Below, in pieces: positions 9,341-54,180 of a stretch of DNA of 64,000 bases. The translations under genes were made by a program, and so were the position numbers. The DNA lies in the NCBI GenBank assembly GCA_043757325.1, contig JAYVPO010000019.1:18624-82623 (forward strand). The letters are read 5' to 3'. Each line of letters begins with the position of its first letter. Positions within the stretch are counted from its first letter, which is position 1. Origin of the DNA: a bacterium (GTDB lineage: Bacteria > Bdellovibrionota_B > Oligoflexia > Oligoflexales > RGVZ01). The notes below the pieces were generated by a model that saw nothing but the letters and a program-made list of their open reading frames with translations, was not told where the DNA came from and ran no database searches.

Positions 9341-9350
9341 TTTAAAAGCC

Positions 9351-13084: not shown

Positions 13085-13099
13085 GTTTAATATCATCAG

Positions 13100-13849
13100 T
13101 TAGCTGTCAATCGACCAGGCGCTGTTTCCCATATCTTTGTCACCCTTCCAATTTGACATGCCCATTTCGATTTGAACTTCAACATCTGTATCTGATCCGT
13201 TTCCTGGAGGATTTGCTGGTGGATTCGTACCACCGCCTCCTGGAGGATTTGCTGGAGGTTTTGTACCGCCACCGCCACCTGGAGGATTTGCTGGAGGTTT
13301 TGTGCCACCACCGCCTCCTGGAGGATTCGGTCCACTGCCACCTGAGCAAGGAACAACTTTGCTAAATTCGACTGTAATTCTTAGGCTTGAAATCATCTGA
13401 GAATCTTCAAAACAAAGGACGGGTTGAGAATTTGCTGAAATCTGCAAAGTGAATTTAGTCGTTTTATTTTGAGTTAACCCTTGAATCTTTCCAAGAAGGA
13501 TAGAACTAGCAGATTTTTCCAAGGTGTTACTTGTTGTCGTTGCACCGGAATCGTTTGAGGCAAAGGTATAACTTAAAGCCGCTTGCTGGATGTTTGCTGG
13601 TATAGCTGCGGATAAGACAGTAGGCGAAATCCGGCCTTCAGCAACGGCCGTAAGTTTAGAGTTCGGACCGCTTGGATCGCCTCCGGGTCCAGGCTTAATT
13701 CCATTACCAGGCCCTCCAGGAAGTCCAGATCCGGAATCGGGTTTTTTTGCTGGCGAATTGTTTTCGACTGTTGGACTTTTCTGTACGCACGACAAAAGTG
13801 ACGACGCAATAAAAGCAAGACCAAACCATTGATTGATTGAGCGATTCAT
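13100..13849 (-). CDS. Lipoprotein with C-terminal Gly/Pro repeats
   Basis: Signal peptide with lipobox LLSC. C-terminal PNPPGGGGGTKPPANPPGGGGGTKPPANPPGGGGTNPPANPP. Confidence 0.8.
   Translation of the reverse strand: MNRSINQWFGLAFIASSLLSCVQKSPTVENNSPAKKPDSGSGLPGGPGNGIKPGPGGDPSGPNSKLTAVAEGRISPTVLSAAIPANIQQAALSYTFASNDSGATTTSNTLEKSASSILLGKIQGLTQNKTTKFTLQISANSQPVLCFEDSQMISSLRITVEFSKVVPCSGGSGPNPPGGGGGTKPPANPPGGGGGTKPPANPPGGGGTNPPANPPGNGSDTDVEVQIEMGMSNWKGDKDMGNSAWSIDS
13205..13329. repeat. Tandem 36-39 bp repeat (about 3.3 units) inside the lipoprotein gene
   Basis: Units tggaggatttgctgg(a/t)gg(a/t)tt(c/t)gt(a/g)cc(gcc)accgcc(t/a)cc encode the GGGGTKPPANPP repeat. Confidence 0.85.
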
Positions 13850-13895
13850 AATTTAAGCCCTCATAAAATCTATAAACGACATTTTCTTTAGTATT

Positions 13896-13911
13896 TGCAA
13901 AAACGAGGCCC
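13896..13911 (-). promoter_or_regulatory. Weaker sigma-54-type promoter candidate for the Gly/Pro lipoprotein gene
   Basis: The minus strand reads gGGCctc-gttt-TTGCA. GG-N10-GC spacing is correct and the -12 TTGCA is perfect. The -24 box is only GGC. About 47 nt upstream of the ATG. Confidence 0.3.
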
Positions 13912-13978
13912 GCTATAACCCTCTACAACCTTTACCAAAACACCGTTAAAAAGCGGCTAAAGCTTAGACACTGTCGAC

Positions 13979-14848
13979 TTATGTGATTGTCGGTTGAGCC
14001 GCGAGACTATTATATGAGGCCAAATGTCCTGCTGTTCTTAACCCTAAATGCGCCATTACCTGATCGAGGGTTTTTCCTTGGCGAAATTGGTGACCGATAG
14101 CGTGTGATCGAAGTTCTTCGGTATTGAGTTTTTTAATTTCGCAATGATCACCAAGTTCATAGAGCGTAAACTTCACACCGTGTCTGGTTAAAGAAGTTAG
14201 ATGAACCGAAGAATGCTTGCCTTTAAATGCAATAAAAACATTTCCCGTGGATGAATACTTTCCGCATTCTTGAAACGTCGAGCGATAGTGTCGGAGTTGG
14301 GTAATGGTTTCGGAGCTCAAAATCAGCGTTCGAGGTCGCTGGCCTTTAATGCGAAGACTACCTTCGAAGCCAGACATTACAAGCTGTGACCAGGTTAGTT
14401 CCACAAGCTCACTCGCCTTTACCCCTTCCAACCCAAGTAAACATAATAAAGCCTGATCGCGCGCTGCTTTGAGACTAGAAAGTTGCGATTGGGCCGCAGC
14501 CATTAATTTTTCAAAAACTTCTTGATTGACCGAGATGCGTTTTTGTTCGGCACGATTTGGGATAACGACATGGGATGTGGGATTTTCGTTAACGTCACCT
14601 TGCACAATTAAAAATCGATAGAATTGCCTTAGACCAAGCAAAGCGCGCCGTGCAGAATTTATTTTTCCTGAGGAAAGTCTTGCCAACACAAATTCCGAAA
14701 CCGATTCCGCCGCCACAGCAAAAAAATTAAGTTTATGCGCGGTACAAAATTCTAGAAAAAGCTTTGTGTCACTGATGTAGGCTTCGCAAGTTGCGTCGGA
14801 TTTCCCGTGCGACTTAAGAAAAATTTTAAATTGAATTAAGTTTTCCAT
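13979..14848 (-). CDS. Tyrosine-recombinase (XerC/D, phage-integrase) family protein, catalytic motifs apparently degenerate
   Basis: SAM-like N-domain (FKIFLKSHGKSDATCEAYISDTKLFLEF) and a C-terminal ELRSHAIGHQF...AHLGLRTAGHLASY. Start taken at ATG 14848 (MENLIQF). Confidence 0.7.
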   Translation of the reverse strand: MENLIQFKIFLKSHGKSDATCEAYISDTKLFLEFCTAHKLNFFAVAAESVSEFVLARLSSGKINSARRALLGLRQFYRFLIVQGDVNENPTSHVVIPNRAEQKRISVNQEVFEKLMAAAQSQLSSLKAARDQALLCLLGLEGVKASELVELTWSQLVMSGFEGSLRIKGQRPRTLILSSETITQLRHYRSTFQECGKYSSTGNVFIAFKGKHSSVHLTSLTRHGVKFTLYELGDHCEIKKLNTEELRSHAIGHQFRQGKTLDQVMAHLGLRTAGHLASYNSLAAQPTIT

Positions 14849-14871
14849 TTTTTTAATGTTATCATAAAATA

Positions 14872-15477
14872 ATGCTTCACCGCCTAATTTTATTTTTTGT
14901 TGTTGTCTCAACCTCAAGTTTTGCTAGAGGTAGATCTTGCAAACTCATTTTTGAAGTCAACAAAACCAAAAGGGAAATCACAACCTCGGACACTTTGACT
15001 CTTTATCGCGGCGATCTTGTAAAACTAATAAAAACCTCACACTGTGGGTCTGATATGGTTTTTGAGTTTGTTGGTTTGAAACGCGATACTGAAAATCAAC
15101 CGCCGGTAAATGACCTTAATAACTTAATCGATACTGCCTATGCCTTTTCTGATGGAATTTATGCGCAAGGTAAATTTCAAATTTTTATGCGCAACTCTGC
15201 CGCCGAACTGAAAAGTCAAATTCAAGGTACGCTTTCAGAACCGGAGCTACACTATGCCGTGCTAACAACATCAGGAAGCGAAAGAATCGTAAGAAACGGC
15301 GATGTCATTGAGTTAATGGCGAAGCAAAAACTAAAAGTCTCACGGGTCGAAACAAATTTGACCGAAAAAAAGTTAATCAACGTGGAATTTAAAAACACGG
15401 GCCATTCAAACCGCGTTCAGTTGTTTGTAAAATATCAAAATTTTAAATTTGCAACTATTGAAACTCGGATCCGCTAA
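14872..15477 (+). CDS. Secreted hypothetical protein
   Basis: Signal peptide MLHRLILFFVVVSTSSFA. Its stop lies 2 nt before the start of the following kinase gene. Confidence 0.6.
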   Translation: MLHRLILFFVVVSTSSFARGRSCKLIFEVNKTKREITTSDTLTLYRGDLVKLIKTSHCGSDMVFEFVGLKRDTENQPPVNDLNNLIDTAYAFSDGIYAQGKFQIFMRNSAAELKSQIQGTLSEPELHYAVLTTSGSERIVRNGDVIELMAKQKLKVSRVETNLTEKKLINVEFKNTGHSNRVQLFVKYQNFKFATIETRIR

Positions 15478-15479
15478 GA

Positions 15480-17720
15480 ATGAGCTCAAAAGTTGCTCGC
15501 CGCCGCCGGATCATTCAACTTATAATCTCAATCGCAGCCATTACTTTTTTTGTGTTAATTTCCAGGTTAGAAGTTAGACTTTTTCAACTTGCTGAACTTT
15601 TGGCCCAAGAAAGAAATTTCATAGCCACAGTGATATACTTTGGCAGTATCAACTTAAATGTTGTTATAGTCTTACTTCTTTCACTACTTATTTTGCGCAA
15701 CTTGGCAAAGCTTTTTCTGGAGAGAAAACGCGGGGTATTTGGCTCGCGTCTGCGCACAAAAATTTCGATGGTTTTGGTGATTTTTACGATCGCACCGTCT
15801 GCCATATTGTTCTATGTGTCCACATCTTTTGTGTCCAAAAGTTTTGACTCGTGGGTTAATAACCGACTAAAAACTCTTATTCGTGAAACGCAAAACACAA
15901 GTTTAAAAATCTTCTCCCAGGATCAAAAAAGACTCGAGTCCATCGCACGTTCCGCCGCAACCAAAATCGAATGCCAAGATGAGTTGTTCACTACCCCTAC
16001 TTGCAATTTGCAAAGCCTGCATTCATTGGGTCAAGATTATAATTTGTATAAAACTGTTTTTTTCCGGCCAGATGGCACGATTTCTTACACTTCAAAAACT
16101 GATTCGATAGATATCGGCTATTCCGAAGTAGAATTTGTTCAAGAAATTATTCCTTATTTTACAGGTAGTGATCCAAGTGACTCATTTTCCACAATCGAAT
16201 CACAGCCCGACCTTGATAGTGCGGCGGCCCTGATTCCGGTTTATTCAAAAACCGGCCAGCTTGGCGGCGTTTTACTTTTACGCGAAAAATTCGAATCAGG
16301 AATCTTAAGAAACATCGAAAATACGCTTACTGGAATAGCCAATTTGAAGCCCGCTTCGCAGACCGTAAAACTTGGGTTTTTTGTTCTTCTGGCCATGATG
16401 ATCTTATTGATTGTTTTTGCGGCGATTTGGTTAGCGCTTGGCATTGCTCGCGGTATTACGCAGCCTTTAAGAAGCCTTGCAGAAGCAACCGTAAAAGTCG
16501 CGGCCGGCGACTACTCGTTTTTTCTAACACCTCAGTCAGAAGACGAAACCGGAAGCCTAGTAAGGTCGTTTAATAAAATGGTAACAGACCTGAGACAGCA
16601 CCGCGATCTTGTGGAACATTCGCGTTTAAAGCTTGAGATAACCAACCACGAACTTGAAGGGCGCAACCAATTTATTGAAGTTATCATGCAAAATGTTTCG
16701 GCAGGGGTGATCGCCTTTGATGCAACCGAAAGCATCACTTTAATAAATATTGAGGCCCAAAATATTTTAAAGATTCCTGAAGCAACCTACGTGGGCAAAA
16801 CGTTAAGCCAGCTTTTTTCGCAAGGTTCCTTAAAAAAACTACGCGAACTATGGAGGACGGACCCATCGAGTCCTTCGGCTCTAAAAAATAGTGCAAAAGA
16901 AATTAGCATTGAGGTCGCGACGGTGACTTTGAACTTAATTGTCCGCATCACTCACCTGCGCGGCATGTCAGACCAAGATTTTGGCAAAATTATGGTTTTT
17001 GAAGATGCCACCGAAAAACTGCAATTTCAACGAATGGTGGCATGGAAAGAAGTCGCGCAAAGAATTGCGCACGAAATTAAAAACCCCGTCACTCCCATTC
17101 GTTTAAATGCCGAACGACTGCAAAAAAAATATAGCGGTCGATTTGTCAACGAAGATAAAGAAATTTTTGATAAATGTTTGACGTCAATTTTAAACCAAGT
17201 GGACTCGCTTAAAGACCTCGTAAATGCCTTTGCAAATTTTTCGAAGCTTCCGTCTGCAAATTTTGTTACCTTGGATATCAGTAAATTGTTGATGCAAAGT
17301 TTAGAGACCCTAGGGCTTTTAGAATCTCAAATCGATATCAAGATTTGTAAAGGCGAAGCACTTGTTTTGGGAGATAAAGAGCAATTACTGAGGGTTTTTT
17401 TAAATGTTCTATCAAATTCACTCGAAGCTTTTAAACAGGCAACGGCAAACAATAAGTCTGGAAATCTAAAAATTACCGTAGAAACAAAAATTATTTCCGA
17501 AAAAAATCGTGTTACCATTCTATTTGCCGATAATGGACCAGGCATCCCGCAGAATCTTTTAAGTCGGATTATCGAACCGTACTTTTCTACTAAAGTGCAT
17601 GGAACGGGTCTTGGACTCGCCATAGTGGATCAAATTATCATGGAACATAAAGGCAGGTTAGAAATTAAAAATAATGCACAAGGCGGAGCTTGCGTTGTGA
17701 TTGAATTACCGCTCGTATAA
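15480..17720 (+). CDS. NtrY-like sensor histidine kinase (multi-TM, HAMP, PAS, HisKA, HATPase)
   Basis: H-box AHEIKNPVTPI, N/G boxes LSNSLEAF and DNGPGI...GTGLGLAIV, HAMP-like segment after the TM helices. Confidence 0.9.
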   Translation: MSSKVARRRRIIQLIISIAAITFFVLISRLEVRLFQLAELLAQERNFIATVIYFGSINLNVVIVLLLSLLILRNLAKLFLERKRGVFGSRLRTKISMVLVIFTIAPSAILFYVSTSFVSKSFDSWVNNRLKTLIRETQNTSLKIFSQDQKRLESIARSAATKIECQDELFTTPTCNLQSLHSLGQDYNLYKTVFFRPDGTISYTSKTDSIDIGYSEVEFVQEIIPYFTGSDPSDSFSTIESQPDLDSAAALIPVYSKTGQLGGVLLLREKFESGILRNIENTLTGIANLKPASQTVKLGFFVLLAMMILLIVFAAIWLALGIARGITQPLRSLAEATVKVAAGDYSFFLTPQSEDETGSLVRSFNKMVTDLRQHRDLVEHSRLKLEITNHELEGRNQFIEVIMQNVSAGVIAFDATESITLINIEAQNILKIPEATYVGKTLSQLFSQGSLKKLRELWRTDPSSPSALKNSAKEISIEVATVTLNLIVRITHLRGMSDQDFGKIMVFEDATEKLQFQRMVAWKEVAQRIAHEIKNPVTPIRLNAERLQKKYSGRFVNEDKEIFDKCLTSILNQVDSLKDLVNAFANFSKLPSANFVTLDISKLLMQSLETLGLLESQIDIKICKGEALVLGDKEQLLRVFLNVLSNSLEAFKQATANNKSGNLKITVETKIISEKNRVTILFADNGPGIPQNLLSRIIEPYFSTKVHGTGLGLAIVDQIIMEHKGRLEIKNNAQGGACVVIELPLV

Positions 17721-17733
17721 GCTGGAGAAGATA

Positions 17734-19116
17734 TTGAGTCAGAAATCAGAAAAGCCGCTTGCACTCATTGTCGACGATGAAAAAACCATCGGCGAAGCAC
17801 TGGCTGGCGTTCTAGAGGATGAAAATTGGCGCACAGATTACGCCGCATCAGGCCTTGAGGCGTTACAGGCATTTAACAAGAAAAAACCTGATTTAATTTT
17901 TCTAGATATTTGGATGCCCGGAATGGATGGCATCGAAACACTTCAGCGCCTAAGAGAAATAGATAGCGAAGTTCCCATATATATTATGAGTGGTCACGGA
18001 ACAATTGAAACAGCAGTAAAAGTAACTAAGCTTGGGGCTACTGATTTTTTGGAAAAACCCTTGGCAATTGACCGTATTATAAAAATTCTGCAAGCCACTA
18101 AAATCAAAGATTCAACCGCGGCAAAAAATACTCCGACTCATCCTATCATCATTGGTGTATCGCCACACATTGAGGCCATACGTGATCTCATAAAAATGAT
18201 AGCCCCGCGCCCTAGTTCGATTTTAATAACGGGAGAAAACGGCACAGGCAAGGAAGTTCTTGCGCGCAATATTCATCAGTTTAGCGATCGTTCGAAGGCT
18301 CCGTTCATTGCCGTTAACTGCGCCGCAATTCCTGAAGAGCTAATCGAAAGTGAATTGTTCGGTCATGTTAAAGGAGCGTTTACGGGTGCCATTGCGGCCA
18401 AAAAAGGTAAGTTTGAACAAGCCCACGGCGGTACATTGTTTCTCGATGAAATAGCCGATATGTCGCTTCGAACTCAAGCCAAAATTCTGCGCATCATTCA
18501 AGATAAAAAGTTTGAAAAACTTGGCGATGAAAGTGCTGTCAGTGTAGATGTGCGACTTATAGCGGCTACTAATAAAGATTTAAATCAAGAAATTTCCGCG
18601 GGGCGATTTCGTGAAGATCTATTCTATAGGTTAAACGTTGTTCCAATTCATATGCAGCCACTGCGGCAACGTAAAGAAGATATATTGCCATTGGTAGAAT
18701 TTTTTTTGAAAGAATTAAAAAAAGATCTCGGCGGTTTGCAAAAAGATTTTAGCGAAGCGTCATTTTCCGCCCTTCAGACCTATCATTTTCCTGGAAATGT
18801 TCGCGAATTAAAAAACCTCGTCGAAAGACTTTGTGTCACAGTTGCTAGTCCAAAAATCGACTTAAGTCATCTTCCCATTGAAATTATTTCCGAATATGAA
18901 AAAAACCTTGCACGCCCTGACACTATTCCTACCAATTCCTTAAAAGACGCCAAACAACATTTTGAAAAGCTATTTTTGTTGGAAAAACTTCAAGAAAATA
19001 ATTGGAATATCTCGCGTACTGCCGAAGTTATTGGGGTTGAACGAAGTCATCTGCATAAAAAAATTAAACTTCTGGGAATTGATTCGAACCAACTTAAAGA
19101 TAGTGAGGATTTATGA
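17734..19116 (+). CDS. Sigma-54-dependent response regulator (receiver + AAA+ + Fis-type HTH)
   Basis: LIVDDE receiver, Walker [15 protein letters not shown] loop, C-terminal [27 protein letters not shown] 17734 with GGAG upstream is preferred over TTG 17701. Confidence 0.9.
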
Positions 19117-20342
19117 CTTTTAAAACTATGGCTATTAAGCAAGATAACTCGGGCATTTATTTTGATGCTGCTCACCTTGATATGGGAAAAAAATGGGAGG
19201 CACGAGTTGTTGATGAAAATCGCATTTTACTGCAATCTTCAAACTTTCCTTTTATCACTGAAAATTATCTAGATGGATTTGCAAAATGCAGCGCCGAGGT
19301 ATTTCGCGATCTTTTGGTGGGAATAAATCAACGAAAATGGTCTGGCCTCATCACCACCGATTCTGGCTTTGGAGTCAAAAAAATTTTTTTTAGTGAAGGT
19401 GAAATAATTTTCGCTTCGTCAAATTTAATAGATGATCGTCTTGGTGAGATTATTTACAGAGAAAGCATGATTACTTTAGACCAGCTTACCGAAGCTGCCG
19501 TGAAAGTTGATCGAAATAATAAATTTGGCCAGGTTTTGTTAACCGGAAAAGTTTTTGACAACAATAAACTCTGGACTGCTTTGAAACTGCAAGTTAGGTC
19601 TATTTTTTACAGTTTATTTTTACCCGACGAAATATTTTTTCAACTTGAGAGCGGAAAAAATCTAACCGCAAATGAAATTGTTTTTGAAGACGGCACCGCG
19701 CAACTCATAGACGAAGGGTTTGCATTGGGATGCCAATTTCATTCTTTTCGAAATCGCTTGACCGAAGCTACAACAATCGAAATTTCAAATTTAGACTGGC
19801 AGACAAGTATTCAAGAAGGGACGTTTATGCACGATCTTTTTGAACTTATCGGGGTGGACTCACATGTGGATTTGGTCATTAAAAATTCAAAGCTTTCGCA
19901 ATTGAATACCCTGAACTTAATTTTTCGATTTTCGCAGCTCGGATTTTGTAAATTACGTAACCGCAAAGATTCGCATCGTAGTTTAAACACTCCTGTTTTA
20001 AGTCGAATTCGAGCTCGTCTAGACACCTATTCGATGCTTCTACATTTTGTTAAAAGCAGCTTTCAAGCAACTGAAATCGCCTTTCCATTTAACGAACTTC
20101 GCCAATTTGCATTGAGTTTGAATTCTAATTATGTAACGTCTTTTTTTATCGATTCCGACGGAATGGTTGATGCCGACTGTGTTGAATCCATTGCCGAGCA
20201 GTGCTTAGCACATCCTGCAAGTTCAAATTTTTTTGAAACTCGAATCCATAGCCTCACGCGATTTATTTTTCAAATAGCTTTAGACAATTTACCTCAGTCG
20301 CAGACTCTTAAACTGAAAGATTTTCTGCGGGATATACATTGA
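19113..20342 (+). CDS. Hypothetical protein, possible DUF4388 (PATAN-like) N-terminal domain
   Basis: The ATG overlaps the upstream stop (ATGA). GLITTDSGFGVKKIFFSEGEIIFASSNLIDDRLGEIIY resembles the DUF4388 signature. Confidence 0.6.
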   Translation: MTFKTMAIKQDNSGIYFDAAHLDMGKKWEARVVDENRILLQSSNFPFITENYLDGFAKCSAEVFRDLLVGINQRKWSGLITTDSGFGVKKIFFSEGEIIFASSNLIDDRLGEIIYRESMITLDQLTEAAVKVDRNNKFGQVLLTGKVFDNNKLWTALKLQVRSIFYSLFLPDEIFFQLESGKNLTANEIVFEDGTAQLIDEGFALGCQFHSFRNRLTEATTIEISNLDWQTSIQEGTFMHDLFELIGVDSHVDLVIKNSKLSQLNTLNLIFRFSQLGFCKLRNRKDSHRSLNTPVLSRIRARLDTYSMLLHFVKSSFQATEIAFPFNELRQFALSLNSNYVTSFFIDSDGMVDADCVESIAEQCLAHPASSNFFETRIHSLTRFIFQIALDNLPQSQTLKLKDFLRDIH

Positions 20343-21034
20343 CAGAAATCAACAATATATTTTTGATTGAGGGGCTGCCGATCGTGGAAGAGTATGTGCG
20401 AAATCGCCCTCTTGCGATTGAGAAGATCTATGCTCGTTCCAACGATTTTGATTTAGTCCAGAAAACTTTTCGCACGTTTAAGGTTACAAAAAACGATCAA
20501 CTATCGCGGCAAAGTTGCTTTGCTCACATAAAAATAGAGCTCAAAGATTTTGATTATCTAACTAAAAATCTCGCGGAAAAAGAAGTCATAGTAGCTTTAG
20601 ACCATGTGCAAGACCCAAGAAATGTCGGTGCCATTACGCGCACGTGCGCTTTTTTCGGTGTGCGATTTCTTTTGGCGCCCAAAGATCGGCAAGCGCTTTT
20701 AACGCAAAGCTCGGTAGCTACTGCGCAAGGTGGTTTCTCAGCTGTGGACTTGGTGCAGGTCACAAATCTTAAAACAGCCCTCGAACAGCTTAAAAAACAA
20801 GATTTTTGGATATTTGGTTCGGAAATGAACGGCAAATCTTTGCATACATACGATTTAAATTTTAAACGCTCGGTGATTATATTGGGTAACGAAGAGACGG
20901 GCCTGAAAAAAGGCGTTATTGAGTCCTGTGACGAGATCTTGTCCATTCCGACATTACGAAAAAAAATCGATTCTTTAAATGTATCGGTGGCCGCGGGCAT
21001 TTTTATATCTCACTTCGCTCGAAATCTCGCTTAG
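20339..21034 (+). CDS. rlmB: SpoU/TrmH-family RNA 2'-O-methyltransferase (RlmB-like)
   Basis: LDHVQDPRNVGAITRTCAFFGV, ILGNEETGL and IPTLRKKIDSLNVSVAAGI motifs. Confidence 0.85.
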   Translation: MTEINNIFLIEGLPIVEEYVRNRPLAIEKIYARSNDFDLVQKTFRTFKVTKNDQLSRQSCFAHIKIELKDFDYLTKNLAEKEVIVALDHVQDPRNVGAITRTCAFFGVRFLLAPKDRQALLTQSSVATAQGGFSAVDLVQVTNLKTALEQLKKQDFWIFGSEMNGKSLHTYDLNFKRSVIILGNEETGLKKGVIESCDEILSIPTLRKKIDSLNVSVAAGIFISHFARNLA

Positions 21035-21242
21035 TCTATTGGAATTTTTAAGGAGTTTTATTCTTTTTTTGGGCTTTTTATTTAGAAAATATAAAACGTT
21101 TCAGGGATGATTCGACCGGGAGGAATCTGCAAAGCAAAAGGTCACGGGGCCGGTCTGCATATATCCCTGAAACGTTTTATATTTTCTAAATAAAAAGCCC
21201 AAAAAAAGAATAAAACTCCTTAAAAATTCCAATAGACTAAGC
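21029..21242. repeat. Giant hairpin element, family 1 copy A
   Basis: 21031-21107 is a perfect reverse complement of 21164-21240 (77 bp, plus 2 more flanking bp). Inner 56 nt is tgattcgaccg-N32-cggtctgcatata. The left arm starts in the rlmB stop codon. Confidence 0.9.
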
Positions 21243-21324
21243 AAGTTTACGTCTCCGTTCGAAGTTTCAAAAGGAACGAGCGGGAAGGGGAGGGGGAGAA
21301 AATTTTTTGGCCGGAAACAATAGT

Positions 21325-21511
21325 TTATTCAATTTCTTTAAATTTAATCATCTTTTTTTAATTTTTAAAAATAAAAACATTTCAGGGGATATATGCAGAC
21401 CGACCCGCAAATTGTATTCAAAAAAGACTGTTCGATCGGTCGAATCATCCCCTGAAATGTTTTTATTTTTAAAAATTAAAAAAAATGATTAAATTTAAGG
21501 AAATTGAATAA
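21325..21511. repeat. Giant hairpin element, family 1 copy B (core inverted relative to A)
   Basis: Arms 21325-21389 and 21448-21511 are complementary except for one mismatch and a 1-nt indel. Inner part is tatatgcagaccg-N34-cggtcgaatca. Confidence 0.9.
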
Positions 21512-21570
21512 CCTATTTTTTCCGTCCTAAACTTTTTTGAACACCGAATTAAGTTTAAAGTTTCAATCGC

Positions 21571-21666: not shown

Positions 21667-21742
21667 GCTGGTGTAGCTCAATTGGTAGAGCAGCTGATTT
21701 GTAATCAGCAGGTTGCGGGTTCAAGTCCCATCGCCAGCTCCA
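21667..21742 (+). tRNA. tRNA-Thr (anticodon TGT)
   Basis: 76 nt cloverleaf folded by hand. Acceptor gctggtg/cgccagc, anticodon loop tttgtaa, encoded CCA. One C-A mismatch in the T stem. Confidence 0.9.
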
Positions 21743-21779
21743 GTGATATGTTTAGATCGTTGAAGTGAGGGAGTAGTGG

Positions 21780-21865
21780 GGATGGATACCCAAGTGGCCA
21801 AAGGGGACGGGCTGTAAACCCGTTGACAATAGTCTTCGAAGGTTCGAATCCTTCTCCATCCACCA
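21780..21865 (+). tRNA. tRNA-Tyr (anticodon GTA)
   Basis: 86 nt. Acceptor ggatgga/tccatcc, anticodon loop ctgtaaa, long variable arm, T-loop ttcgaat, CCA. Confidence 0.9.
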
Positions 21866-21873
21866 AAATTGTT

Positions 21874-21949
21874 GCGGGTGTAGCTCAGCTGGTAGAGCAT
21901 TAGCCTTCCAAGCTAAATGTCGCGAGTTCGATTCTCGTCGCCCGCTCCA
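21874..21949 (+). tRNA. tRNA-Gly (anticodon TCC)
   Basis: 76 nt. Acceptor gcgggtg/cgcccgc, anticodon loop cttccaa, CCA. Confidence 0.92.
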
Positions 21950-21957
21950 GCTTTTCT

Positions 21958-22033
21958 GCCCAGGTAGCTCAGCTGGTAGAGCACGTCCTTGGTAAGGACG
22001 AGGTCACGGGTTCGAGTCCCGTTCTGGGCTCCA
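21958..22033 (+). tRNA. tRNA-Thr (anticodon GGT)
   Basis: 76 nt. Acceptor gcccagg/tctgggc, anticodon loop ttggtaa, CCA. Confidence 0.92.
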
Positions 22034-22203: not shown

Positions 22204-23397
22204 ATGTCGAAAGAGAAGTTTGAGCGTAAAAAACCGCACGTTAATATTGGCACGATTGGCCACGTTGACCACGGTAAAACAACATTAACAGCAGCTATTA
22301 CTCGAGTGATGTCGGTGAAATTTGGTGGTCAGGCTTTAAGCTACGATCAGATTGACAAATCACCTGAGGAAAAAGCGCGCGGTATTACCATTTCAACTTC
22401 GCACGTTGAGTACGAATCTGAAAAACGGCATTACGCTCACGTGGATTGTCCAGGTCATGCTGACTACGTTAAAAACATGATCACGGGTGCGGCCCAGATG
22501 GACGGCGCTATTTTGGTTGTGAGTGCGTCTGACGGTCCGATGCCACAAACTCGTGAACACATTCTTTTAGCTCGCCAGGTTGGTGTGCCAAAAATTGTTG
22601 TGTTCCTTAATAAATGCGACATGGTTGATGACGCAGAATTACTTGACCTTGTAGAAATGGAAGTTCGTGAACTTCTTACACTCTATAAGTTTCCTGGCGA
22701 CGACACACCGATTATTCGTGGTTCCGCTTTAAAGGCTTTAGAATCAGGAACTCCAGATTCTGAATGGGGCAAAAAAATTGTAGAATTGATTGCGGCTTGC
22801 GATGAATATATTCCCATGCCACACCGTCCAATCGAAAGGCCGTTTTTGATGCCAATCGAAGACGTGTTTTCTATCTCCGGTCGCGGTACGGTTGTGACTG
22901 GCCGTATCGAAAGAGGAATTGTTAAAAACGGTGAAGAAATCGAAATTATCGGCATCAATCCAACAACAAAAACTGTATGTACGGGTGTTGAAATGTTCCG
23001 AAAACTTCTTGATGAGGGCCGTGCAGGCGATAACGTCGGCGTACTTTTACGCGGAACAAAACGCGAAGAAGTTGTACGTGGTCAAGTTCTAGCGAAGCCA
23101 GGTTCGATTACTCCTCACAAAAAATTCAAGGCACAGGTGTATATTCTGACCAAGGAAGAAGGCGGTCGTCACACTCCGTTTTTCAAAGGATACAGACCTC
23201 AGTTTTACTTTAGAACAACTGATGTTACCGGTGATATAAAGTTGCCAGATAATGTCGAAATGGTGATGCCCGGTGACAACATTGCGATGGACGTAGAATT
23301 AATATCTCCAATTGCGATGGATACGGAACTACGTTTTGCGATCCGTGAAGGCGGCAGAACAGTTGGTGCCGGTGTGGTTGCTGAGATTACAGATTAA
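22204..23397 (+). CDS. tuf: Elongation factor Tu
   Basis: 397 aa. [18 protein letters not shown] and NKCD G-motifs. AGGAGG upstream. Confidence 0.98.
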
Positions 23398-23444: not shown

Positions 23445-23520
23445 AGGCGGGTAGCTCCAACGGTAGAGCGACGGATTCCAAATCCGTATGTTGTGGGTTC
23501 GAATCCCACCCCGCCTGCCA
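23445..23520 (+). tRNA. tRNA-Trp (anticodon CCA)
   Basis: 76 nt. Acceptor aggcggg/cccgcct, anticodon loop ttccaaa, T-loop ttcgaat, CCA. Confidence 0.92.
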
Positions 23521-39972: not shown

Positions 39973-41508
39973 TTGTTAAGCTCCAAAATAGTTTTGCAAA
40001 ATAAATGGCCGCGGTTTTACTTTAAAGCAATTTTTTTTGAAGCGATTTTTTTCTGTCTTCCTATTCTGTGGTGGATGGGCCTGAATGTCATGGATTTGGC
40101 TCGTCTTTTTTTAATTGTTATTGCGTATCTTTACCTGAAATATCCTGAAGTTCGCAAATTTGCCTTTGTACCATCAAAACTTAAATTGAATTTACTTTGC
40201 ATTTTAATAATTTCTTTTCTTGTTCTTCTGCCGTTAGAGCTCAATTTAAGAAACTTTCTTGGGCATACCGTTAATGACACGAATATTTTTAATCAAGCAG
40301 CCGTTAACTTTGCAAATCATGGTCGATTCTGGGTAACTTTAAATCGTGCCGGACAAAACGATTTTTTAGCTGACCACGTTTCTCCAATACTACTGATACC
40401 GGCCTTTTTTTACAAACTCGGTATCCCTGCTTACTCAATTTCGATTGTCTTCCAGCAGATATGCTTTTTGATCGGGAGTTATTTTGCAATTAAGATCCTA
40501 AAAGAGTTAAAATTCGACATATTTAGTTCACTGCTTATACTTTTGCTTCTTCTCTATCAGCCAACTTTTCGAAGCCAACTTACCTGGAGTGTTCAGGTGG
40601 AATATATGAGTTTCCCCTTTATTGCTGCGAGCTATTTTTTTTGGTTAAAAGATAAAAATTGGCTTTCGGTTTTCACGGCTGTTTTAAGTTGGTCCTGCAA
40701 GGAATCCCTTGCTTGTTGGAGTGTTGGATTTGGTCTCTTTGCTTTGGCTTATTTGTTGGTTTATCGGCGGAATTACTTCTGGCAAAAAAGCCTGCCTTTT
40801 TTAGTTCTGACAATTTCAGGAAGCTTTTATTTTTACCTCGTCATTTACCACCACAGCCTTTTTTTTGGTCGGGATTACGACTATCTTTCAAGGCTTGATT
40901 TCACTTGGATTTGGCAAAATCCTTTGCTTGTTTTTAAAAAACTTAGATATCTATGTTTTTTCATTGCTAGTGTTTTCTTCATTCCAATTCAAAAACCTAA
41001 ATACTTGATATTTTTACTACCGGTGTTACCGAACTTTGGAATGAGTCTGGTATCTGGTTTTGACGATATGTACGAAATCAGCAAACAATATGCTTTATTT
41101 CCTGCTATGATTTTATTTCTGACCACTATTTTAGCAACAAAAGTATTGTTTCCAATTAAAAAAAACTCAATCCTGAAGCTACCACTGGTTCCATGTTGTC
41201 TACTTATGTGCTTTTATTTTTCCTTTCTTTCTTTAAGGCCGATGAAGATTTTTAAGGAGTGGATTTTTGAAGACTTCTATCACGCCGATGATTTTACTCA
41301 AATTCCACTTACAGAAAATGTCTTTGCAACCTTGAAATCAGCGCCATTTCTATTAGATCGCAAAGGAGTTTTTCTAAGCGATTACGATTCGAAATTGAGT
41401 TATGCTCTGGTACACCACTCGGAAATTTCTAAAATACCACAAACTATTATCGAGAAAACTTCAATCTGCCTTGATACAAAGGAATGGTATGCACGCTGTG
41501 CCAACTAA
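39973..41508 (+). CDS. Polytopic membrane protein, DUF2079-type (putative GT-C glycosyltransferase), paralog 1
   Basis: At least 10 predicted TM segments. DTNIFNQAAVNFANHGRFWVTLNR...FLADHVSPILLIPAFFYKLG and SWSCKESLACWSVGFGLFAL. TTG start. Confidence 0.8.
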   Translation: MLSSKIVLQNKWPRFYFKAIFFEAIFFCLPILWWMGLNVMDLARLFLIVIAYLYLKYPEVRKFAFVPSKLKLNLLCILIISFLVLLPLELNLRNFLGHTVNDTNIFNQAAVNFANHGRFWVTLNRAGQNDFLADHVSPILLIPAFFYKLGIPAYSISIVFQQICFLIGSYFAIKILKELKFDIFSSLLILLLLLYQPTFRSQLTWSVQVEYMSFPFIAASYFFWLKDKNWLSVFTAVLSWSCKESLACWSVGFGLFALAYLLVYRRNYFWQKSLPFLVLTISGSFYFYLVIYHHSLFFGRDYDYLSRLDFTWIWQNPLLVFKKLRYLCFFIASVFFIPIQKPKYLIFLLPVLPNFGMSLVSGFDDMYEISKQYALFPAMILFLTTILATKVLFPIKKNSILKLPLVPCCLLMCFYFSFLSLRPMKIFKEWIFEDFYHADDFTQIPLTENVFATLKSAPFLLDRKGVFLSDYDSKLSYALVHHSEISKIPQTIIEKTSICLDTKEWYARCAN

Positions 41509-43033
41509 AAAAAACAGCTCACACGGCTTGTTTATATTATTTTTAAGTTTACCTATCTGTTGGCTTTCAGGCCTAAGTATTATTGATATTTCACGTATTA
41601 TACTCGGAATGATTGTCATTTTATTTTTAAAATATCCGAAGATAGTATCGTTAGTTTTTCCAAATACGGTGTGGTCAAAAACTTCAATAACTACAGTGAT
41701 CGTCACCATTTTGATTTTTGTACCTTTAGTTTTAAATCTGCGAAATTTTATTGGTGAAAGTGTTGTTGATACACAGATCTTTAATCAAGCTGCTGTAAAT
41801 TTTGCTAATCACGGTCGTTTTTGGGTTAGTTTAAATCGATTTTGGCTAAGTGATTTTTTAGCAGATCACGTATCACCAATTTTAATAGCACCAGCTTTTC
41901 TTTATCGGTTAGGGATCCCGGCTTATAGTTGTGCGATATTTTTTCAAATGCTAACCACAGGTTTAGGTTCCTGGTGTTTATTTTATCTAGCCAAGATATT
42001 AAAATTTGACACCATGTCATCGCTTGCTGTCTGCCTTATATTCCTTTGTCTTGGACCCATTCGAAATCAACTAACGTGGAATGTGCAGGCCGAATATATG
42101 AGTTTTCCGTTTGTTGTTTTAACTTATTATTTTTGGGTAAAAAAATATCACTGGGTTGCAGTAACCGCGGCGGTTCTAAGCTGGTCATGTAAGGAAACTC
42201 TAGCCTGCTGGAGTGTGGGTTTTGGACTTTTCGCACTTGCGTATGATTTGATTGTTGTACGCCAAAAATCCTTTCGAACGGTTTTACCTTATTTGTTACT
42301 TGTGGTTTGCGGAACAGCGTATTTTTTTGGGTTGGTGATTTTTCATGAATTTATTTTTGGCCGAAGTTTTGATTACTTGGGCCGTATAGATTTGCAAAGT
42401 ATTTTTGAGAGTCCAAAGATATTTTTGGAAAAAATTGGGTATATCGTCTTCTTTTTGAGCGCGGGGCTCTTTTATTTTTTCTGGAAGAAAATAAATATGA
42501 TTTTTCTTTTGCCGATACTACCTCATTTTATTATAAGTTTTATTTCCAATTCATCGCATATGAGAGAACTAGGTCGCGAGTACGCACTTTTTCCTGCAAT
42601 GGCTGTGTATATTGCGACTATTACTGCTTTTGGCCTCAATAAAAATATTTCGAATTCCAAAGTTCGGCCTTTCACAATCCCAGCATGCGCGGGCGTATTT
42701 GTTTTGGCATTGTACTTTGCGTTTTTACCGTCAAAGCCAATGGGAGTTTTACATGATTATTTTGCATTGCCTAAACTGTCAACCGAGTCATTACAGTTTA
42801 TTCCGCGAGAAGCCGACGTTTATGTAAGTTTGCGAGCAGCACCGTTTCTACTGGATAGGCATATTCTTTACTTATACACGGCCCGAACGGAAAAGTGGCC
42901 TGAATTTGATTATCTTGTTATTCATCAAAACGAACTCAAAGATTTAACCCAAATAATTAAAGAAAAAACTAGGGCCTGTTTTGAATCTATTGATTGGCAT
43001 GTACGGTGCAAACTTAATGCCACGAAACCATAA
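41489..43033 (+). CDS. DUF2079-type membrane protein, paralog 2
   Basis: Very similar to paralog 1 in the conserved blocks (QIFNQAAVNFANHGRFWVSLNR...FLADHVSPILIAPAFLYRLG). ATG 41489 overlaps the end of paralog 1 by 20 nt. Confidence 0.8.
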   Translation: MHAVPTKKNSSHGLFILFLSLPICWLSGLSIIDISRIILGMIVILFLKYPKIVSLVFPNTVWSKTSITTVIVTILIFVPLVLNLRNFIGESVVDTQIFNQAAVNFANHGRFWVSLNRFWLSDFLADHVSPILIAPAFLYRLGIPAYSCAIFFQMLTTGLGSWCLFYLAKILKFDTMSSLAVCLIFLCLGPIRNQLTWNVQAEYMSFPFVVLTYYFWVKKYHWVAVTAAVLSWSCKETLACWSVGFGLFALAYDLIVVRQKSFRTVLPYLLLVVCGTAYFFGLVIFHEFIFGRSFDYLGRIDLQSIFESPKIFLEKIGYIVFFLSAGLFYFFWKKINMIFLLPILPHFIISFISNSSHMRELGREYALFPAMAVYIATITAFGLNKNISNSKVRPFTIPACAGVFVLALYFAFLPSKPMGVLHDYFALPKLSTESLQFIPREADVYVSLRAAPFLLDRHILYLYTARTEKWPEFDYLVIHQNELKDLTQIIKEKTRACFESIDWHVRCKLNATKP

Positions 43034-49558: not shown

Positions 49559-52048
49559 TCAATTGAACTGACTTACTCCAAGTGGTGCTGAACTAACAGT
49601 GCCTGGTCCACAAGCGACTGCAGTTGAAAAACAATATCCATATAAAACTGTTAAAACACCCCTGAATGGATCTTTTACCAGGTCGATTTTACCGAAACTT
49701 GTGTAGGAGATATAATTGGTTGAAAATAGGGAATTTGTACTTGAATTCCAACGCGGCGATCCTAAAGGATCAAAACGATAGGACTGAATCTTCATAGGAG
49801 TATTTTGAGTTGTATTCATCCCGTCAACAAATGCGAGAAGGCCATTGCCTAAATTATCGATAGAGGCATTTAAAAGGCCAGAATATAAGTTGATTGCATT
49901 GGAGTTAACGTTAAATTGATCTCGAATCGTAATCCCGTCTTTATCTAAAATTGCAGCACCCAAGTTATTTGGAGTAGGTAAGTTAGTGACCATAGAATAA
50001 GCGAATAAAACATCACCTTGATCGTTAGAATCAATTGATAATGCTGGTGCATATATTGATCCCGCAGAAGGGTTAAAAATTGACGTAGCGGCAGGGCTGA
50101 AGTTTGCACCATTTCTAGTCACCGCAAAATATACGTTCCCTGTTGTCGAAAGTGCTGATAAGAGAATCCTACCGTCTGGTGTATTTTTAGCTTTGATTTG
50201 ACCTGCAATGATATTTGTAAATAATGGACTCGTCGACCAAGCGCCAGCATTTCTGTAGGCCACGTTAATGATACCGCTAGTTTCTTCATACATAAGAATT
50301 CCACGATCGCTAATTGACGCACCACTATTACTGAATGCCTGAACACTTCTACAAACCGATGAAAGGAAATTTGATGCACCATAGGGATTATTAGCGGTAG
50401 ACAGTCCTGAAAATCCATAACAATTGGTGCTATCCGATAAACCAACAGAAAAGGTGTTATTAATCCCGTCAAAATAGACACTACCAGACAATTTTACAAT
50501 ATTATTTGACGGTATGGAGTTAGAAAATAAGGAGGGAGAACTGCAAAGCATATCAACAAGAAGGCAAATGATTATGTCAGTTTTTGTTGAGCCGAGATTG
50601 TATTTTGAATAAATTAAAAAAGATTGATTTAAAGAATTTGTGACAACATCAAAAGCTATAGGATATGAACTTGAGACAATTAGGGATTCTAAATTGGACC
50701 AGCTGCCGCTGTTAGATCTGTTTGAAAATATCTTGTTGAAACCGCCTGAGTAGACGCCGAAAATAACTCCAGTGGTTGAGACTTGGTTCGAAAAAAACTT
50801 CGCTTGAATCGGGTTGGCTCCGCTCATTGAAGGATAAGTCGGGTTAATTCTACTAGGCGTTCCTAACACTCCTCGATTAATTTGGGCGGTAGATCCATAA
50901 TACATCGAGCCTACATTATCACTCCAGTAAGCTAAAAGCTGTCCCGGCATTAATCCTTTAATAATTCGTGCATCATTAAAACTATTCGCGTTGGCATAGC
51001 TAGGAGTCAATGCTGGACTTCCACTGAGCTGATTCCATATTCCATCTCGTGTTTTAAAAGTTATCGTTGATGGCGTTGCAAAATTTTGACCGTAAGTATC
51101 TTTTAAATCCGGTAGCAATCGGAAATTCTGCCACGCGTTTAAAGGAAACATCCCGTCTGGAGGGAAAATGGTAATGCCTAACTTATCTTGGCTCACTTGG
51201 GTCGGTGGCGAAAAGGTCTGAGCCGTGAAATTTTGCTGATATAGTTTTATATTTGCGCCAACTGTAGACGAATCGATAGGGTTATTAAATTTTAAAAATG
51301 CCTGTGCATAGGGGTCGACTCCAGTAGAATTTTGCCTAGGATTTTGATCCACAAGACTTAATGCAGAAAATTGAGTGGCTGGTGCCGGCGTCGGCGTCGG
51401 AGCTTTCTTTTTGTCAGCAGCGGTTGAAATTTTAAGAATATTTGCTGGAAAAATTCGAGTCCCGGTTTGGGCTGCTGGAATCTTCATGGCTTGATAGGAG
51501 CCAAAATATTTGGTGGTCCAAGCAATAGATTTATTCGAAACTTTAATTTGATCAGTAACAAAAACTTGAATCTTTCCATCCCCTCCATAAATTAAACCAA
51601 CAACACCCATTTTTGTCTCGTCTAGTGCAAATTCAGTCAATCCGGCCGAACCCAGACCTATGGAAATTGTGAACGGATTGGTGCTAGGTGTGTTTGACTG
51701 GGAAGTGGTTATACTTACGGTCTGACTACTACTTTCGGCACTAAATCCCAAGGTCGACTGAGGCATAGCAGACGTCATCGAAATACCTTCCTCGACCGTA
51801 ACCTGAGTTCCGGATGCCAAAGAATTGGGGGAGAATGTAATTGTAGAATCTTTAACCGCAGATGTGACGCTTCCGGTTATAACGTTTACTCGATCTGGAT
51901 TGTACGAAACTGTTTTAACACCATCTACGTCAGAAAGTGCAGGTGCTACAAAAAGCCTTGAACCGCCAGTGCCATTCTGATCGCCAAATTTTGAGGGGCC
52001 GCCGTAGCAACCAGCGATAAAACCCAGTATCAGCATTTTGTAATACAT
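49559..52048 (-). CDS. Large surface lipoprotein with Ig-like (SbsA/Big_5-type) segment and probable beta-propeller/beta-rich body
   Basis: Lipobox GFIAGC. Ser/Thr/Asn/Gly-rich. LVDQNPRQNSTGVDPYAQAFLKFNNPIDSSTV resembles a Big_5 domain start. Confidence 0.75.
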   Translation of the reverse strand: MYYKMLILGFIAGCYGGPSKFGDQNGTGGSRLFVAPALSDVDGVKTVSYNPDRVNVITGSVTSAVKDSTITFSPNSLASGTQVTVEEGISMTSAMPQSTLGFSAESSSQTVSITTSQSNTPSTNPFTISIGLGSAGLTEFALDETKMGVVGLIYGGDGKIQVFVTDQIKVSNKSIAWTTKYFGSYQAMKIPAAQTGTRIFPANILKISTAADKKKAPTPTPAPATQFSALSLVDQNPRQNSTGVDPYAQAFLKFNNPIDSSTVGANIKLYQQNFTAQTFSPPTQVSQDKLGITIFPPDGMFPLNAWQNFRLLPDLKDTYGQNFATPSTITFKTRDGIWNQLSGSPALTPSYANANSFNDARIIKGLMPGQLLAYWSDNVGSMYYGSTAQINRGVLGTPSRINPTYPSMSGANPIQAKFFSNQVSTTGVIFGVYSGGFNKIFSNRSNSGSWSNLESLIVSSSYPIAFDVVTNSLNQSFLIYSKYNLGSTKTDIIICLLVDMLCSSPSLFSNSIPSNNIVKLSGSVYFDGINNTFSVGLSDSTNCYGFSGLSTANNPYGASNFLSSVCRSVQAFSNSGASISDRGILMYEETSGIINVAYRNAGAWSTSPLFTNIIAGQIKAKNTPDGRILLSALSTTGNVYFAVTRNGANFSPAATSIFNPSAGSIYAPALSIDSNDQGDVLFAYSMVTNLPTPNNLGAAILDKDGITIRDQFNVNSNAINLYSGLLNASIDNLGNGLLAFVDGMNTTQNTPMKIQSYRFDPLGSPRWNSSTNSLFSTNYISYTSFGKIDLVKDPFRGVLTVLYGYCFSTAVACGPGTVSSAPLGVSQFN

Positions 52049-52167
52049 ACATCACCTCTTAGTAATACTCTCGGATGACGGTGGTAGAAACTTAGTAGGA
52101 ATTTAAAGATTTGGAGTTTAAGCTATTTTTATCATACATTTTAGCTGGTTAACATCTTCATAACCTC

Positions 52168-52534
52168 CGGTTAACATTGGATGCAGTTTTCTGCGCAGGT
52201 TAATGTTTTCTGAACTTGTTACATCTACGTCTGTCCTTGTCTTTGACATCGGCTTTTTCCTTGCCTTTGGGATGATCGTGATTTTCGCCTAGAGGCGTTT
52301 GCCGTACAACTTTTCGTGCGCTGTTATGAGAATATCGAGAACATCGTTGGATATTTAAATAGCAAGTTTTTCTGGCTTAGCTTTGGGAATCCGCTCATGG
52401 CAAAGCCTCTCGGCGAGGATCACCTTCACCGCAAAGGCAACGAAAAAGTCGATGTCGAAGGAAAGGACAAACGTTAAGGTAACAAGTCCAGAAAACATCA
52501 AACCGCCGCGGAAAATTGCATCCAATGTTAGGCA
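52168..52534. repeat. Long imperfect foldback element, family 2 copy D
   Basis: Arms taacattggatgcag...gaggcgtttgcc (52172-52304) and ggcaaagcctc...tgcatccaatgtta (52399-52530) are complementary at roughly four-fifths of positions by eye. The arms are homologous to 5495-5885. Confidence 0.8.
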
Positions 52535-52650
52535 GAGTTTATTAAGAAGTTACCTCGAGGCTGATTTGAAGCGGCTTCAATAAGGAATATTTATGTCAGA
52601 AGGATTGTGAAAATGGAGTAACTATATTTAGAAATCAACCCTAAATTATT

Positions 52651-54180
52651 TTATGGAATAACATAAAAATTAATGGATTGTTTTTCCAGAAGCATCATTT
52701 TGGAGTCTAAAATTCTAATGACTAAGCGGTGAAGTCCAGGTGTTGTGACAATATCTGCCGCAAAAACCGCGGCCGCTTTTTTGCCTTTAGCAGCAGATAC
52801 TCCATCGATATCTAGCTCAATCCCACTTTGATCTGGAATCGCGGTTCCTTCAAATTGTAGAGTTAGAGTGTTTTTTTTATCAAGGAAAACCACACCGCGA
52901 CTCAGACCATCTATTTGCATGGTGAAATTTTTAAATTTCCCCCAGTTGTTTTCCCAAACCGGTTCTTTCAAAGAATCCGGAAGATTATTTTCATCGGCTC
53001 CAATGGATTTCGCCCAGAGTTTTAGAACTTTGTCGGAATTGACATTGGGATTACTCGAATCTTTTGAGCCGTTTCCTGGTAATATTTCAAAAGCTGCCCA
53101 GACAAATGCAGGATGGGCGGTTTGACTTTCTCTGGCCCACTCTCCACCTACAATAAAGCCATCTACGTCAGTTTCGAGGACATACCTATACTTGGAATTA
53201 TGAGGCTCCAAATGGGGCGCAATACTGCCAAGAGCTTCTTCGTCTGGCGCATTTGCATAAAAGGCCGTCATATGAATATCAAAAAACTTTTTAGCATCCG
53301 GATTAAAAACATAAGTTTTTTCGCCGCTACCAATAATTTTTAATGCAGCCTCGCGATCAACTTCGGCTTTAGTAAATCGATACGCGTAGTGCGGATAATT
53401 CCACACGGCATTATCGGGCGAAATATCCACAACGATTGCCTGATTGGCCCGTGCAATCCAATTGGTCAAAACCGTGTGAAATGTTGCGGCGTTGGTATCA
53501 TCACAGGCGCTTCCAATAGTCGGATTCTTGCGGTTTAGAGCACTCGGGAATTTTTCAGGGTGGTTGCGATCTAAAGGTAATAAACACCTATTTCCAGCCA
53601 AAAATAAATACTTCACATTCATATAAACTTCAGCCAATAAAGCTTTGATATCATGGGGCCTAAAAACCACGCCGTTTTTTGTCACATCTCGATTTGGTTC
53701 TTGACGGTTAGAACTGGCCGCTGAATAGCCATTGCAGTGTCCGGCCCAATTTGGAATGTCTTCGAGTTTTTCTTTCTGCTTTGGTCCGTGATTGAGCATT
53801 TCCCAATCGGCAGCAAGACTTTTTCCGGAATTAAAAACCCGGTCATATTTTTGTAACGGCGAAAACCCATCCGATAAAATGACATTAGTTCCGCCCGCTT
53901 TTTGCGGATACCAGTGGCCTGAATAAGGCTTTTTCTCGTCAGAGACTGAGATTTCTAAAGGAATTAATGGGTCGTTAATATTCTTGATAAAGTTAGTTCG
54001 AAACAAATAGAAAAAGTAATTAGCACTCGTGTCGAGTTCACTACCGGTATTTAATTTTAAAATCGAATCGAAAGGCTGCGACCGATTGGTGTTAGATTTT
54101 GTATCGGGAGCTATATTTTGTTTACACTGCAAAAATAAAAGCGCCGAAAGTAGGTAAAAATATTTAAGACTGTGGCTCAT
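52651..54180 (-). CDS. Secreted lipoprotein, possible Cys-nucleophile (transglutaminase/papain-like) enzyme
   Basis: Lipobox LFLQC. NWAGHCNGYSAAS motif. No confident family assignment. Confidence 0.7.
   Translation of the reverse strand: MSHSLKYFYLLSALLFLQCKQNIAPDTKSNTNRSQPFDSILKLNTGSELDTSANYFFYLFRTNFIKNINDPLIPLEISVSDEKKPYSGHWYPQKAGGTNVILSDGFSPLQKYDRVFNSGKSLAADWEMLNHGPKQKEKLEDIPNWAGHCNGYSAASSNRQEPNRDVTKNGVVFRPHDIKALLAEVYMNVKYLFLAGNRCLLPLDRNHPEKFPSALNRKNPTIGSACDDTNAATFHTVLTNWIARANQAIVVDISPDNAVWNYPHYAYRFTKAEVDREAALKIIGSGEKTYVFNPDAKKFFDIHMTAFYANAPDEEALGSIAPHLEPHNSKYRYVLETDVDGFIVGGEWARESQTAHPAFVWAAFEILPGNGSKDSSNPNVNSDKVLKLWAKSIGADENNLPDSLKEPVWENNWGKFKNFTMQIDGLSRGVVFLDKKNTLTLQFEGTAIPDQSGIELDIDGVSAAKGKKAAAVFAADIVTTPGLHRLVIRILDSKMMLLEKQSINFYVIP

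Follow-up and report, generated by a model that had tools for sequence, protein, structure and literature searches.

A 403-nt imperfect palindrome, designated copy D, occupies positions 52150-52552 of the bacterial DNA analysed here (the window, meaning the whole 64-kb stretch). We estimate a probability of a little under 0.6 that copy D is the relic of a lineage-specific, non-autonomous repeat of the foldback or MITE-like type, old and decaying. The features in which it corresponds to a MITE are its length of 403 nt (below 500 bp), the lack of coding capacity, the inverted arms that reach both ends and the existence of dispersed copies. In the history that we propose, the ancestor would have consisted of two near-identical inverted arms of ~155 nt around an A+T-rich centre of ~100 nt. 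It would have spread as a non-autonomous MITE-like element in which the long terminal inverted repeats were the only conserved part, and after spreading each arm would have drifted separately. We infer the mobility of this element, along with a transposase acting in trans.

Structure and genomic setting of copy D

The two ~155-nt arms of copy D (44-49% G+C) surround a centre of 94 nt (52305-52398), which is unique sequence with 38% G+C. A gapped alignment of the left arm (DL, 52150-52304) with the reverse complement of the right arm (DR, 52399-52552) gave 125 matches, 28 mismatches and 3 gap columns, i.e., 82% agreement. The inverted repeat is made of two collinear pairs, 52195-52299/52402-52506 (105 nt, 80%) and 52150-52201/52501-52552 (52 nt, 81%), offset by a 1-nt indel. 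An earlier sequence-only reading of this region had described a foldback with arms complementary at about four of five positions, and this was borne out: over the arm range that it used (52172-52304 against 52399-52530) the gapped alignment showed 109 matches, 22 mismatches and 3 gap columns, i.e., 83%, with a score 19.6 sd above shuffles. The limits that it assigned to the element (52168-52534, 367 nt) do enclose a palindrome but were too narrow, the true span being the 403 nt from 52150 to 52552. Similarly, the 14-mer TAACATTGGATGCA, which it took for the outermost part of the arms, is indeed a perfect match between 52172-52185 (plus strand) and 52517-52530 (minus strand), but the palindrome runs 22 nt further out on both sides. 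Copy E, a third member of the family (see below), has the same outer 22-nt stretch (CAATAACCTCCGATTAACG in copy E, CATAACCTCCGGTTAACA in copy D), which confirms the wider boundary. The 14-mer is the longest perfect run in the palindrome, where perfect runs measure 14, 10, 9, 9 nt and so on, and it occurred nowhere else in the window even when 2 mismatches were allowed.

Copy D lies in a spacer of 602 nt between two genes that are both on the minus strand. The gene on the left (49559-52048) encodes an 829-aa protein with a Big_5 domain and has its start codon 101 nt from the outer end of the left arm; that on the right (52651-54180) encodes a 509-aa protein of the TGase_elicitor family and has its stop codon 98 nt from the outer end of the right arm. 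Both proteins present, by our own reading, signal-peptide-like N-termini with a nearby Cys, so the earlier description of the neighbours as lipoprotein genes stands, and we refer to the products as putative lipoproteins. Folded as RNA or as DNA, either strand of copy D was predicted to form one long hairpin (z of -17 to -20); the predicted energies were -207 and -195 kcal/mol on the two strands (z = -20 and -17, respectively). Strong folding is expected of a palindrome and says nothing on function.

Copies C, D and E form one repeat family

A blastn search of the copy D region against the window led to copy C (5484-5893), of whose family copy D had been proposed to be the second and better preserved member. 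The proposal was upheld, since the four arms of C and D could be aligned with a mean column identity of 73% and 66 invariant columns. Copy C comprises a left arm (CL, 5484-5636), the most decayed of the four, a centre of 104 nt (5637-5740; unique sequence, about 27% G+C) and a right arm (CR, 5741-5893). Its arms, compared over 5504-5636/5741-5873, were 74% alike ungapped and 71% with gaps, i.e., they are less well preserved than those of D. A profile made of these four arms and run with nhmmer found exactly the same four in the 64-kb window, with E-values from 1e-40 to 1e-47: CL at 5481-5648 (E = 9.9e-46), CR at 5894-5729 on the minus strand (E = 3.3e-47), DL at 52150-52315 (E = 1.2e-45) and DR at 52552-52386 on the minus strand (E = 1.1e-43). 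Neither the profile nor the 14-mer matched the window beyond these known arms.

Three blocks of the arms are well kept: an outer one, TTGGATGCAGTTTTC, a middle one, GACATnnGCcTTTTCC, and an inner core, TGAnnGTGnTnnTCGCCnnGAGGCnTT. The inner core is present in all four arms of C and D; in copy D it lies at 52273-52299 on the plus strand, with its mirror at 52402-52428 on the minus strand. The most conserved parts of the arms were the inner core and the middle block, not the extreme termini. The centres of C and D were unrelated, as had been noted before (global alignment z = 0.7 and 1.6 in the two orientations). The accompanying picture of conserved arms with a variable apical cargo holds in that the arms are shared and the centres are not; the word cargo is only a description. 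Another match to either centre was found neither in the window nor in the fetched loci.

The third copy, E, was found by extending the window through public contigs that carry identical window proteins. It is situated about 2.4 kb to the left of the window start, at positions 5829-5945 of contig L044 (nhmmer match 5841-5943, E = 3.9e-13), ~90 nt upstream of the start of a gene for a 530-aa FAD-dependent enzyme. This copy is partial: the contig (5,945 nt) ends inside the arm, and only the outer ~117 nt of the element are seen. The flanks next to the arms were unrelated (z between -0.8 and 0.7; z = -0.08 for the E and D flanks), which means that homology stops at the element boundary, and the position of copy E outside the window makes the family an interspersed one. 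C, D and E, three loci within about 55 kb and with unrelated flanks, are, as judged by these alignments, at least three scattered copies of one non-coding repeat family, which thus rests on three copies, one of them (E) partial.

Independent decay of the arms

The arms of D and E were compared over the same 116 columns. DL and DR were 83% identical to each other, and E was 79% identical to DL and 76% to DR; where the arms of D differ, E sided with the left one 11 times and with the right one 7 times. Private changes numbered 7 in DL, 11 in DR and 6-8 in E, and only 2 paired changes were specific to D. Each of the three arms presented roughly 6-10% private change from one consensus. The similarity between the arms of D is hardly greater than that of either arm to E, and this, together with the mere 2 paired changes, points to independent drift from one consensus. 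Judging from this comparison, the arms of D decay independently, with no sign of selection for pairing; two independent decays would be expected to leave about the complementarity that D shows. The conserved pairing implied by the sequence-only reading found no counterpart in the star-like relation of DL, DR and E.

In copy C the decay was unequal, with 17 private changes in the left arm and 4 in the right when the D arms served as outgroup; many of the left-arm changes are clustered and may go back to few events. An apparent asymmetry of the D arms (0 against 13 private changes, with C as outgroup) shrank to 7 against 11 with the closer outgroup E, and we did not build on it.

In 14 columns C differs from D although the two arms within each element are the same; four columns have the same left/right difference in both elements, and the crossed pattern was seen in none. 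On its own, this pattern might suggest covariation. What separates C from D would be most simply accounted for by two diverged source sequences that were originally near-perfect palindromes. The mismatches of copy D consisted of 15 transitions and 13 transversions, with no G-U enrichment on either strand. A G-U strand bias had been suspected from a count of 8 compatible mismatches with the plus strand read as RNA and 3 with the minus strand; it is absent, the counts being 8 (plus) against 7 (minus) over the full arms and 7 against 6 over the arm range used before. In copy C, 10 mismatches were G-U-compatible on the plus strand and 13 on the minus strand.

Coding capacity, RNA families and signals

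The four arms of C and D were translated in all six frames. Two outward ORFs of the D arms, MSKTRTDVDVTSSENINLRRKL... (52249-52118, minus strand) and MSKERTNVKVTSPENIKPPRKI... (from 52452, plus strand), begin MSKTRT and MSKERT, and their shared starting residues follow an AAGGA-like motif. Each arm could on this ground be taken for a small outward-reading protein gene (MSKTRT...) and the element for a divergent pair of such genes, the more so as copy E keeps a 30-codon ORF in the same frame. However, the matching frame of the copy C arms meets an early stop in both, at codon 10 in the right arm and codon 5 in the left, and the 1-nt indel puts the best-conserved outer block of the two D arms in different frames. 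The peptide of E is identical to that of DL at 16 of 30 residues (our own translation), which is the chance expectation at 79% DNA identity, i.e., there is no sign of selection on the protein. Nor did either of two protein searches return homologues. An alignment search with the inward-reading translations against 5.8 billion proteins yielded 9 candidates that share words, none of which scored; a HMMER search with the outward ORFs against 1.84 billion representatives found no homologous small proteins, only four long ones (537-2371 aa); in three of these the match was split into 5-15 short stretches, which we read as low complexity. On the strength of these translations the arms are not coding, and a pair of small genes is barely conceivable.

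The whole window was searched against Rfam 15 at gathering thresholds with nothing returned in the C and D regions, and permissive scans of both copies gave nothing credible. Below threshold the best scores were noise, apart from one sizeable score for a plant miRNA-precursor model (63 bits, against a gathering score of 230), a generic effect of long hairpins. Elsewhere in the window, positions 13056-13125 (minus strand) matched the Salmonella sRNA family STnc40 with 45.0 bits, exactly the gathering score (E = 9.8e-5); in this lineage such a match is implausible, and it is probably a false positive at the borderline. The only conserved pairing within an arm was a 4-bp CGCC/GGCG mini-hairpin in the inner core, predicted on both strands. 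Scans of the element for promoters and terminators produced nothing above shuffle expectation and nothing shared between copies; no T-run follows the stem, and no terminator-like site was found on the gene strand.

These results bear on the possibility that the element is a functional long-hairpin RNA, cis-acting in the flanking mRNAs or stand-alone, with a functional stem between the arms and the centre as a free loop; the stem would serve as an mRNA stabiliser, a processing site or a terminator-like barrier. The very stable fold predicted for both strands of D agrees with it, and so does the placement of the copies: D and C both start 74-99 nt after the stop codon of a co-oriented gene, and for D and E a start codon follows about 90-100 nt beyond the element. 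The 14 columns mentioned above, the four arm-to-arm mismatches common to C and D and the persistence of the elements despite their age could also be understood in this way. Nevertheless, 18% and 29% of the positions in the arms do not pair, the resemblance between the two D arms does not exceed that predicted by a star phylogeny with E (only 2 paired changes being specific to D), and two diverged palindromic source elements explain the 14 element-specific columns equally well. The missing G-U strand bias, the lack of a match in Rfam, the stem without a T-run, the gene strand without a terminator-like site and the arm ends without a conserved promoter weigh in the same direction, and we consider a functional hairpin RNA unlikely. 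Assignment to a structured ncRNA family was rejected because there was no Rfam match, no sign of pairing maintained by compensatory change and no strand-specific G-U excess.

Sequences at the element boundaries

A 9-nt direct repeat, ggttaacat, had been noted at the left boundary and tentatively regarded as an insertion-site signature. The repeat exists, at 52147-52155 and 52169-52177 (plus strand), with its TAAC box repeated 22 nt apart; a target-site duplication is excluded, since both copies lie on the left side only. Within the outer copy, the TAAC(A/T)T part belongs to the extended left arm of D, and the right arm mirrors both boxes on the reverse strand (TAACTT...17 nt...TAACAT). When the arm ends were compared, the TAAC box repeat turned out to be only partial in copy E and absent from copy C. 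Given its mirror in the right arm and its partial presence in E, the ggttaacat/TAAC repeat is an internal feature of D-type arms rather than a target-site duplication.

Comparison of the element ends revealed no direct repeat flanking copy D. All three D-type ends (those of DL, DR and E) are preceded by a TA dinucleotide, weak evidence where spacers are A+T-rich; at 4 of 5 ends a loose TTAGC(C)T motif was present a few bases further out, which is not strong evidence either. The only sigma-70-like match in the region, TTAACA-17-TAACAT (9/12), is located at the ggttaacat site and is no more than shuffles give.

Other palindromes of the window and contig ends

Three further long intergenic palindromes were observed in the window, at 3374-3561, 21020-21251 and 21299-21537 (80%, 97% and 83% complementary, respectively), none of them with detectable sequence similarity to C or D. 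The two near 21 kb have about 73% identity with each other over 130 nt, and the elements at 3374 and 21020 both begin with TCGCTTAG. Four tRNA genes are clustered at 21667-22030, followed by a 397-aa ORF (22204-23397) and a fifth tRNA gene (23445-23517), which looks like ordinary housekeeping context beside the 21-kb palindromes. The window also contains a direct repeat of 194 nt with 72% identity (40568-40761 and 42060-42253), placed within neighbouring long ORFs, and this looks like adjacent paralogous genes.

Logan contigs from three runs (SRR23617272, SRR23617274 and SRR22198271) had 100% identity to the window over the aligned stretches. Several of their ends lie in or at palindromes, namely at positions 3433, 3524 and 21108 and at the end of L044. 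One contig runs from 3524 to 21108, the position at which the left arm of the 97% palindrome ends; another has one end at 3433 and the other inside copy E. These ends are probably assembly-graph breaks at inverted or repeated sequence.

Contig breaks within copy E and within or at the border of other long palindromes could in principle also result from inversion polymorphism, as would be caused by an invertible DNA switch in which the arms are recombination sites and the centre is a promoter-bearing segment whose flipping would control the neighbouring surface-protein genes. The arrangement of inverted repeats around a short A+T-rich segment between two putative lipoprotein genes recalls such a switch too. 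Yet the Logan contig over D runs through without a break and is identical to the window, the arms agree at only 82% with a longest perfect match of 14 nt, and the corresponding outer block is not conserved between the arms of copy C. The centre is devoid of a promoter-like site. No recombinase gene adjoins D, and the only one noticed (13979-14917, XerC/D-like), with Pfam covering part of the window ORFs, is 38 kb away. Besides, the same family adjoins clpA and the gene for the FAD-dependent enzyme, which are not typical phase-variable loci. A switch is therefore highly improbable, and copy D was not classed as an inverton on account of its 14-nt longest perfect run, the promoterless centre and the recombinase gene 38 kb off.

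Distribution in relatives and public sequences

The host is known only from metagenomes, and no close relative of its lineage is present in the collections searched. Its ClpA is no more than 71% identical to anything else, the named matches at ~60% being those of Oligoflexus and Pseudobacteriovorax, and the nearest homologues of the flanking TGase_elicitor protein have 42% identity or less and are not syntenic with the D site. The gap after clpA is 890 nt in the window, as compared with 94 nt in the nearest ClpA relative (71%) and 124 nt in the 65%-identity relative; upstream synteny (motA-motB-clpS-clpA) is conserved in only one of these two, the 65% one. The shorter gaps suggest that copy C is not an ancient syntenic feature. 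In ~49 kb from relatives we found neither an arm homologue nor a long inverted repeat, at settings that give five in the window.

The core pattern produced 6 chance matches in a collection with genomes from 185,579 species and another 17 in the JGI metagenomes, on unrelated, mostly high-G+C contigs whose likeness was limited to the pattern itself. The host genome is evidently absent from both collections, and these negatives consequently say little on copy number in this organism. Three exact-pattern scans of viral contigs gave chance matches or nothing, and blastn against plasmid and phage records gave no match to the arms. Within the window, no transposase or autonomous element with the same ends was found.

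Comparison with known repeats

Prokaryotic MITEs are shorter than 500 bp and intergenic, and their transcripts fold into stable stem-loops; their flanking direct repeats fade with age, and their terminal inverted repeats (TIRs) typically measure ~4-30 bp (PMC10969869). The 'type II' MITEs share only the TIR regions, and whole-length foldback-type MITEs are represented by the Correia elements of Neisseria and by QMITE1/2 of Coxiella (PMC10969869). Like MITEs, the copies described here are under 500 bp, non-coding, intergenic and scattered, with unrelated flanks and stem-loop-forming inverted repeats, and, as in type II, their conservation is confined to the inverted-repeat regions. They depart from MITEs in their ~155-nt arms, about five times or more the usual ~4-30 bp of TIRs, in that no target-site duplication was seen and no partner IS or transposase in the window, and in that conservation is lower at the extreme termini than in the inner arm blocks, which is not expected of transposase-binding ends. 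As to sequence, no similarity to anything was found in plasmid and phage records, and there was no real match of the arm pattern in the genome, metagenome and viral scans.

Other palindromic repeats were less close. ERIC/IRU sequences, about 127 bp long and with a conserved centre, are widespread across a family of bacteria (the enterobacteria) and are often co-transcribed with their neighbours, affecting mRNA fate. They are, like our elements, intergenic and imperfectly palindromic along the whole length; ours, in contrast, are about 400 nt long, have a non-conserved centre, are known from one lineage only and lack sequence similarity to them. Eukaryotic foldback (FB) transposons belong to eukaryotic transposon superfamilies and have arms built of internal tandem subrepeats. 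In them, as here, long inverted arms around a variable middle make up most of the element, but the arms studied here have no subrepeat structure and the host is a bacterium. REP units are G+C-rich sequences of 20-40 nt with a GTAG or CGTC tag, and REPINs are inverted doublets of them that fold into a hairpin. Our elements are interspersed extragenic palindromes as well, although with arms of ~155 nt at 44-49% G+C, no internal stem beyond the 4-bp CGCC/GGCG and no RAYT gene seen. Membership in REP/REPIN was rejected given the arm length and the absence of a stem longer than 4 bp within an arm. REP, BIME and REPIN elements are mobilised by RAYT transposases (PMC3733652, PMC3116915).

Meaning of the family

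For the preferred reading, that of a decaying foldback or MITE-like relic, two further observations call for caution. The centres of C and D are unrelated, and copying of whole elements from one master is thereby not demonstrated. Moreover, it is unusual in bacteria for ~400 nt of neutral DNA to survive while each arm diverges by 10-15%, which leaves some scope for a function. If a relic of this kind were co-transcribed with its neighbours, its long imperfect hairpin might change the stability of the mRNA or become a substrate of RNase III, effects that have been reported for Correia elements. We give a slim chance to a wider proposal, in which C, D and E and the other palindromes of the window would together be a lineage-specific long-hairpin system with a working role. 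Its members might, for example, tune neighbouring genes as hairpin transcripts processed by RNase III or as DNA sites that form cruciforms; proteins would then bind to the inner core, and the variable centre would be a payload specific to each locus.

For annotation, the arm ORFs should not be called genes; for assembly, it is of note that such palindromes coincide with ends of the public short-read contigs from this organism. The palindrome density of the window is unusual, with five in 64 kb as compared with none in about 49 kb from the nearest available relatives. A new biological question would arise only if expression and processing of the hairpins, or inversion of the centres, could be demonstrated. 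If the decaying-repeat reading is true, the family would be a previously undescribed one in a deep uncultured branch near Oligoflexia, and a marker for mobile-DNA dynamics in these little-known bacteria.
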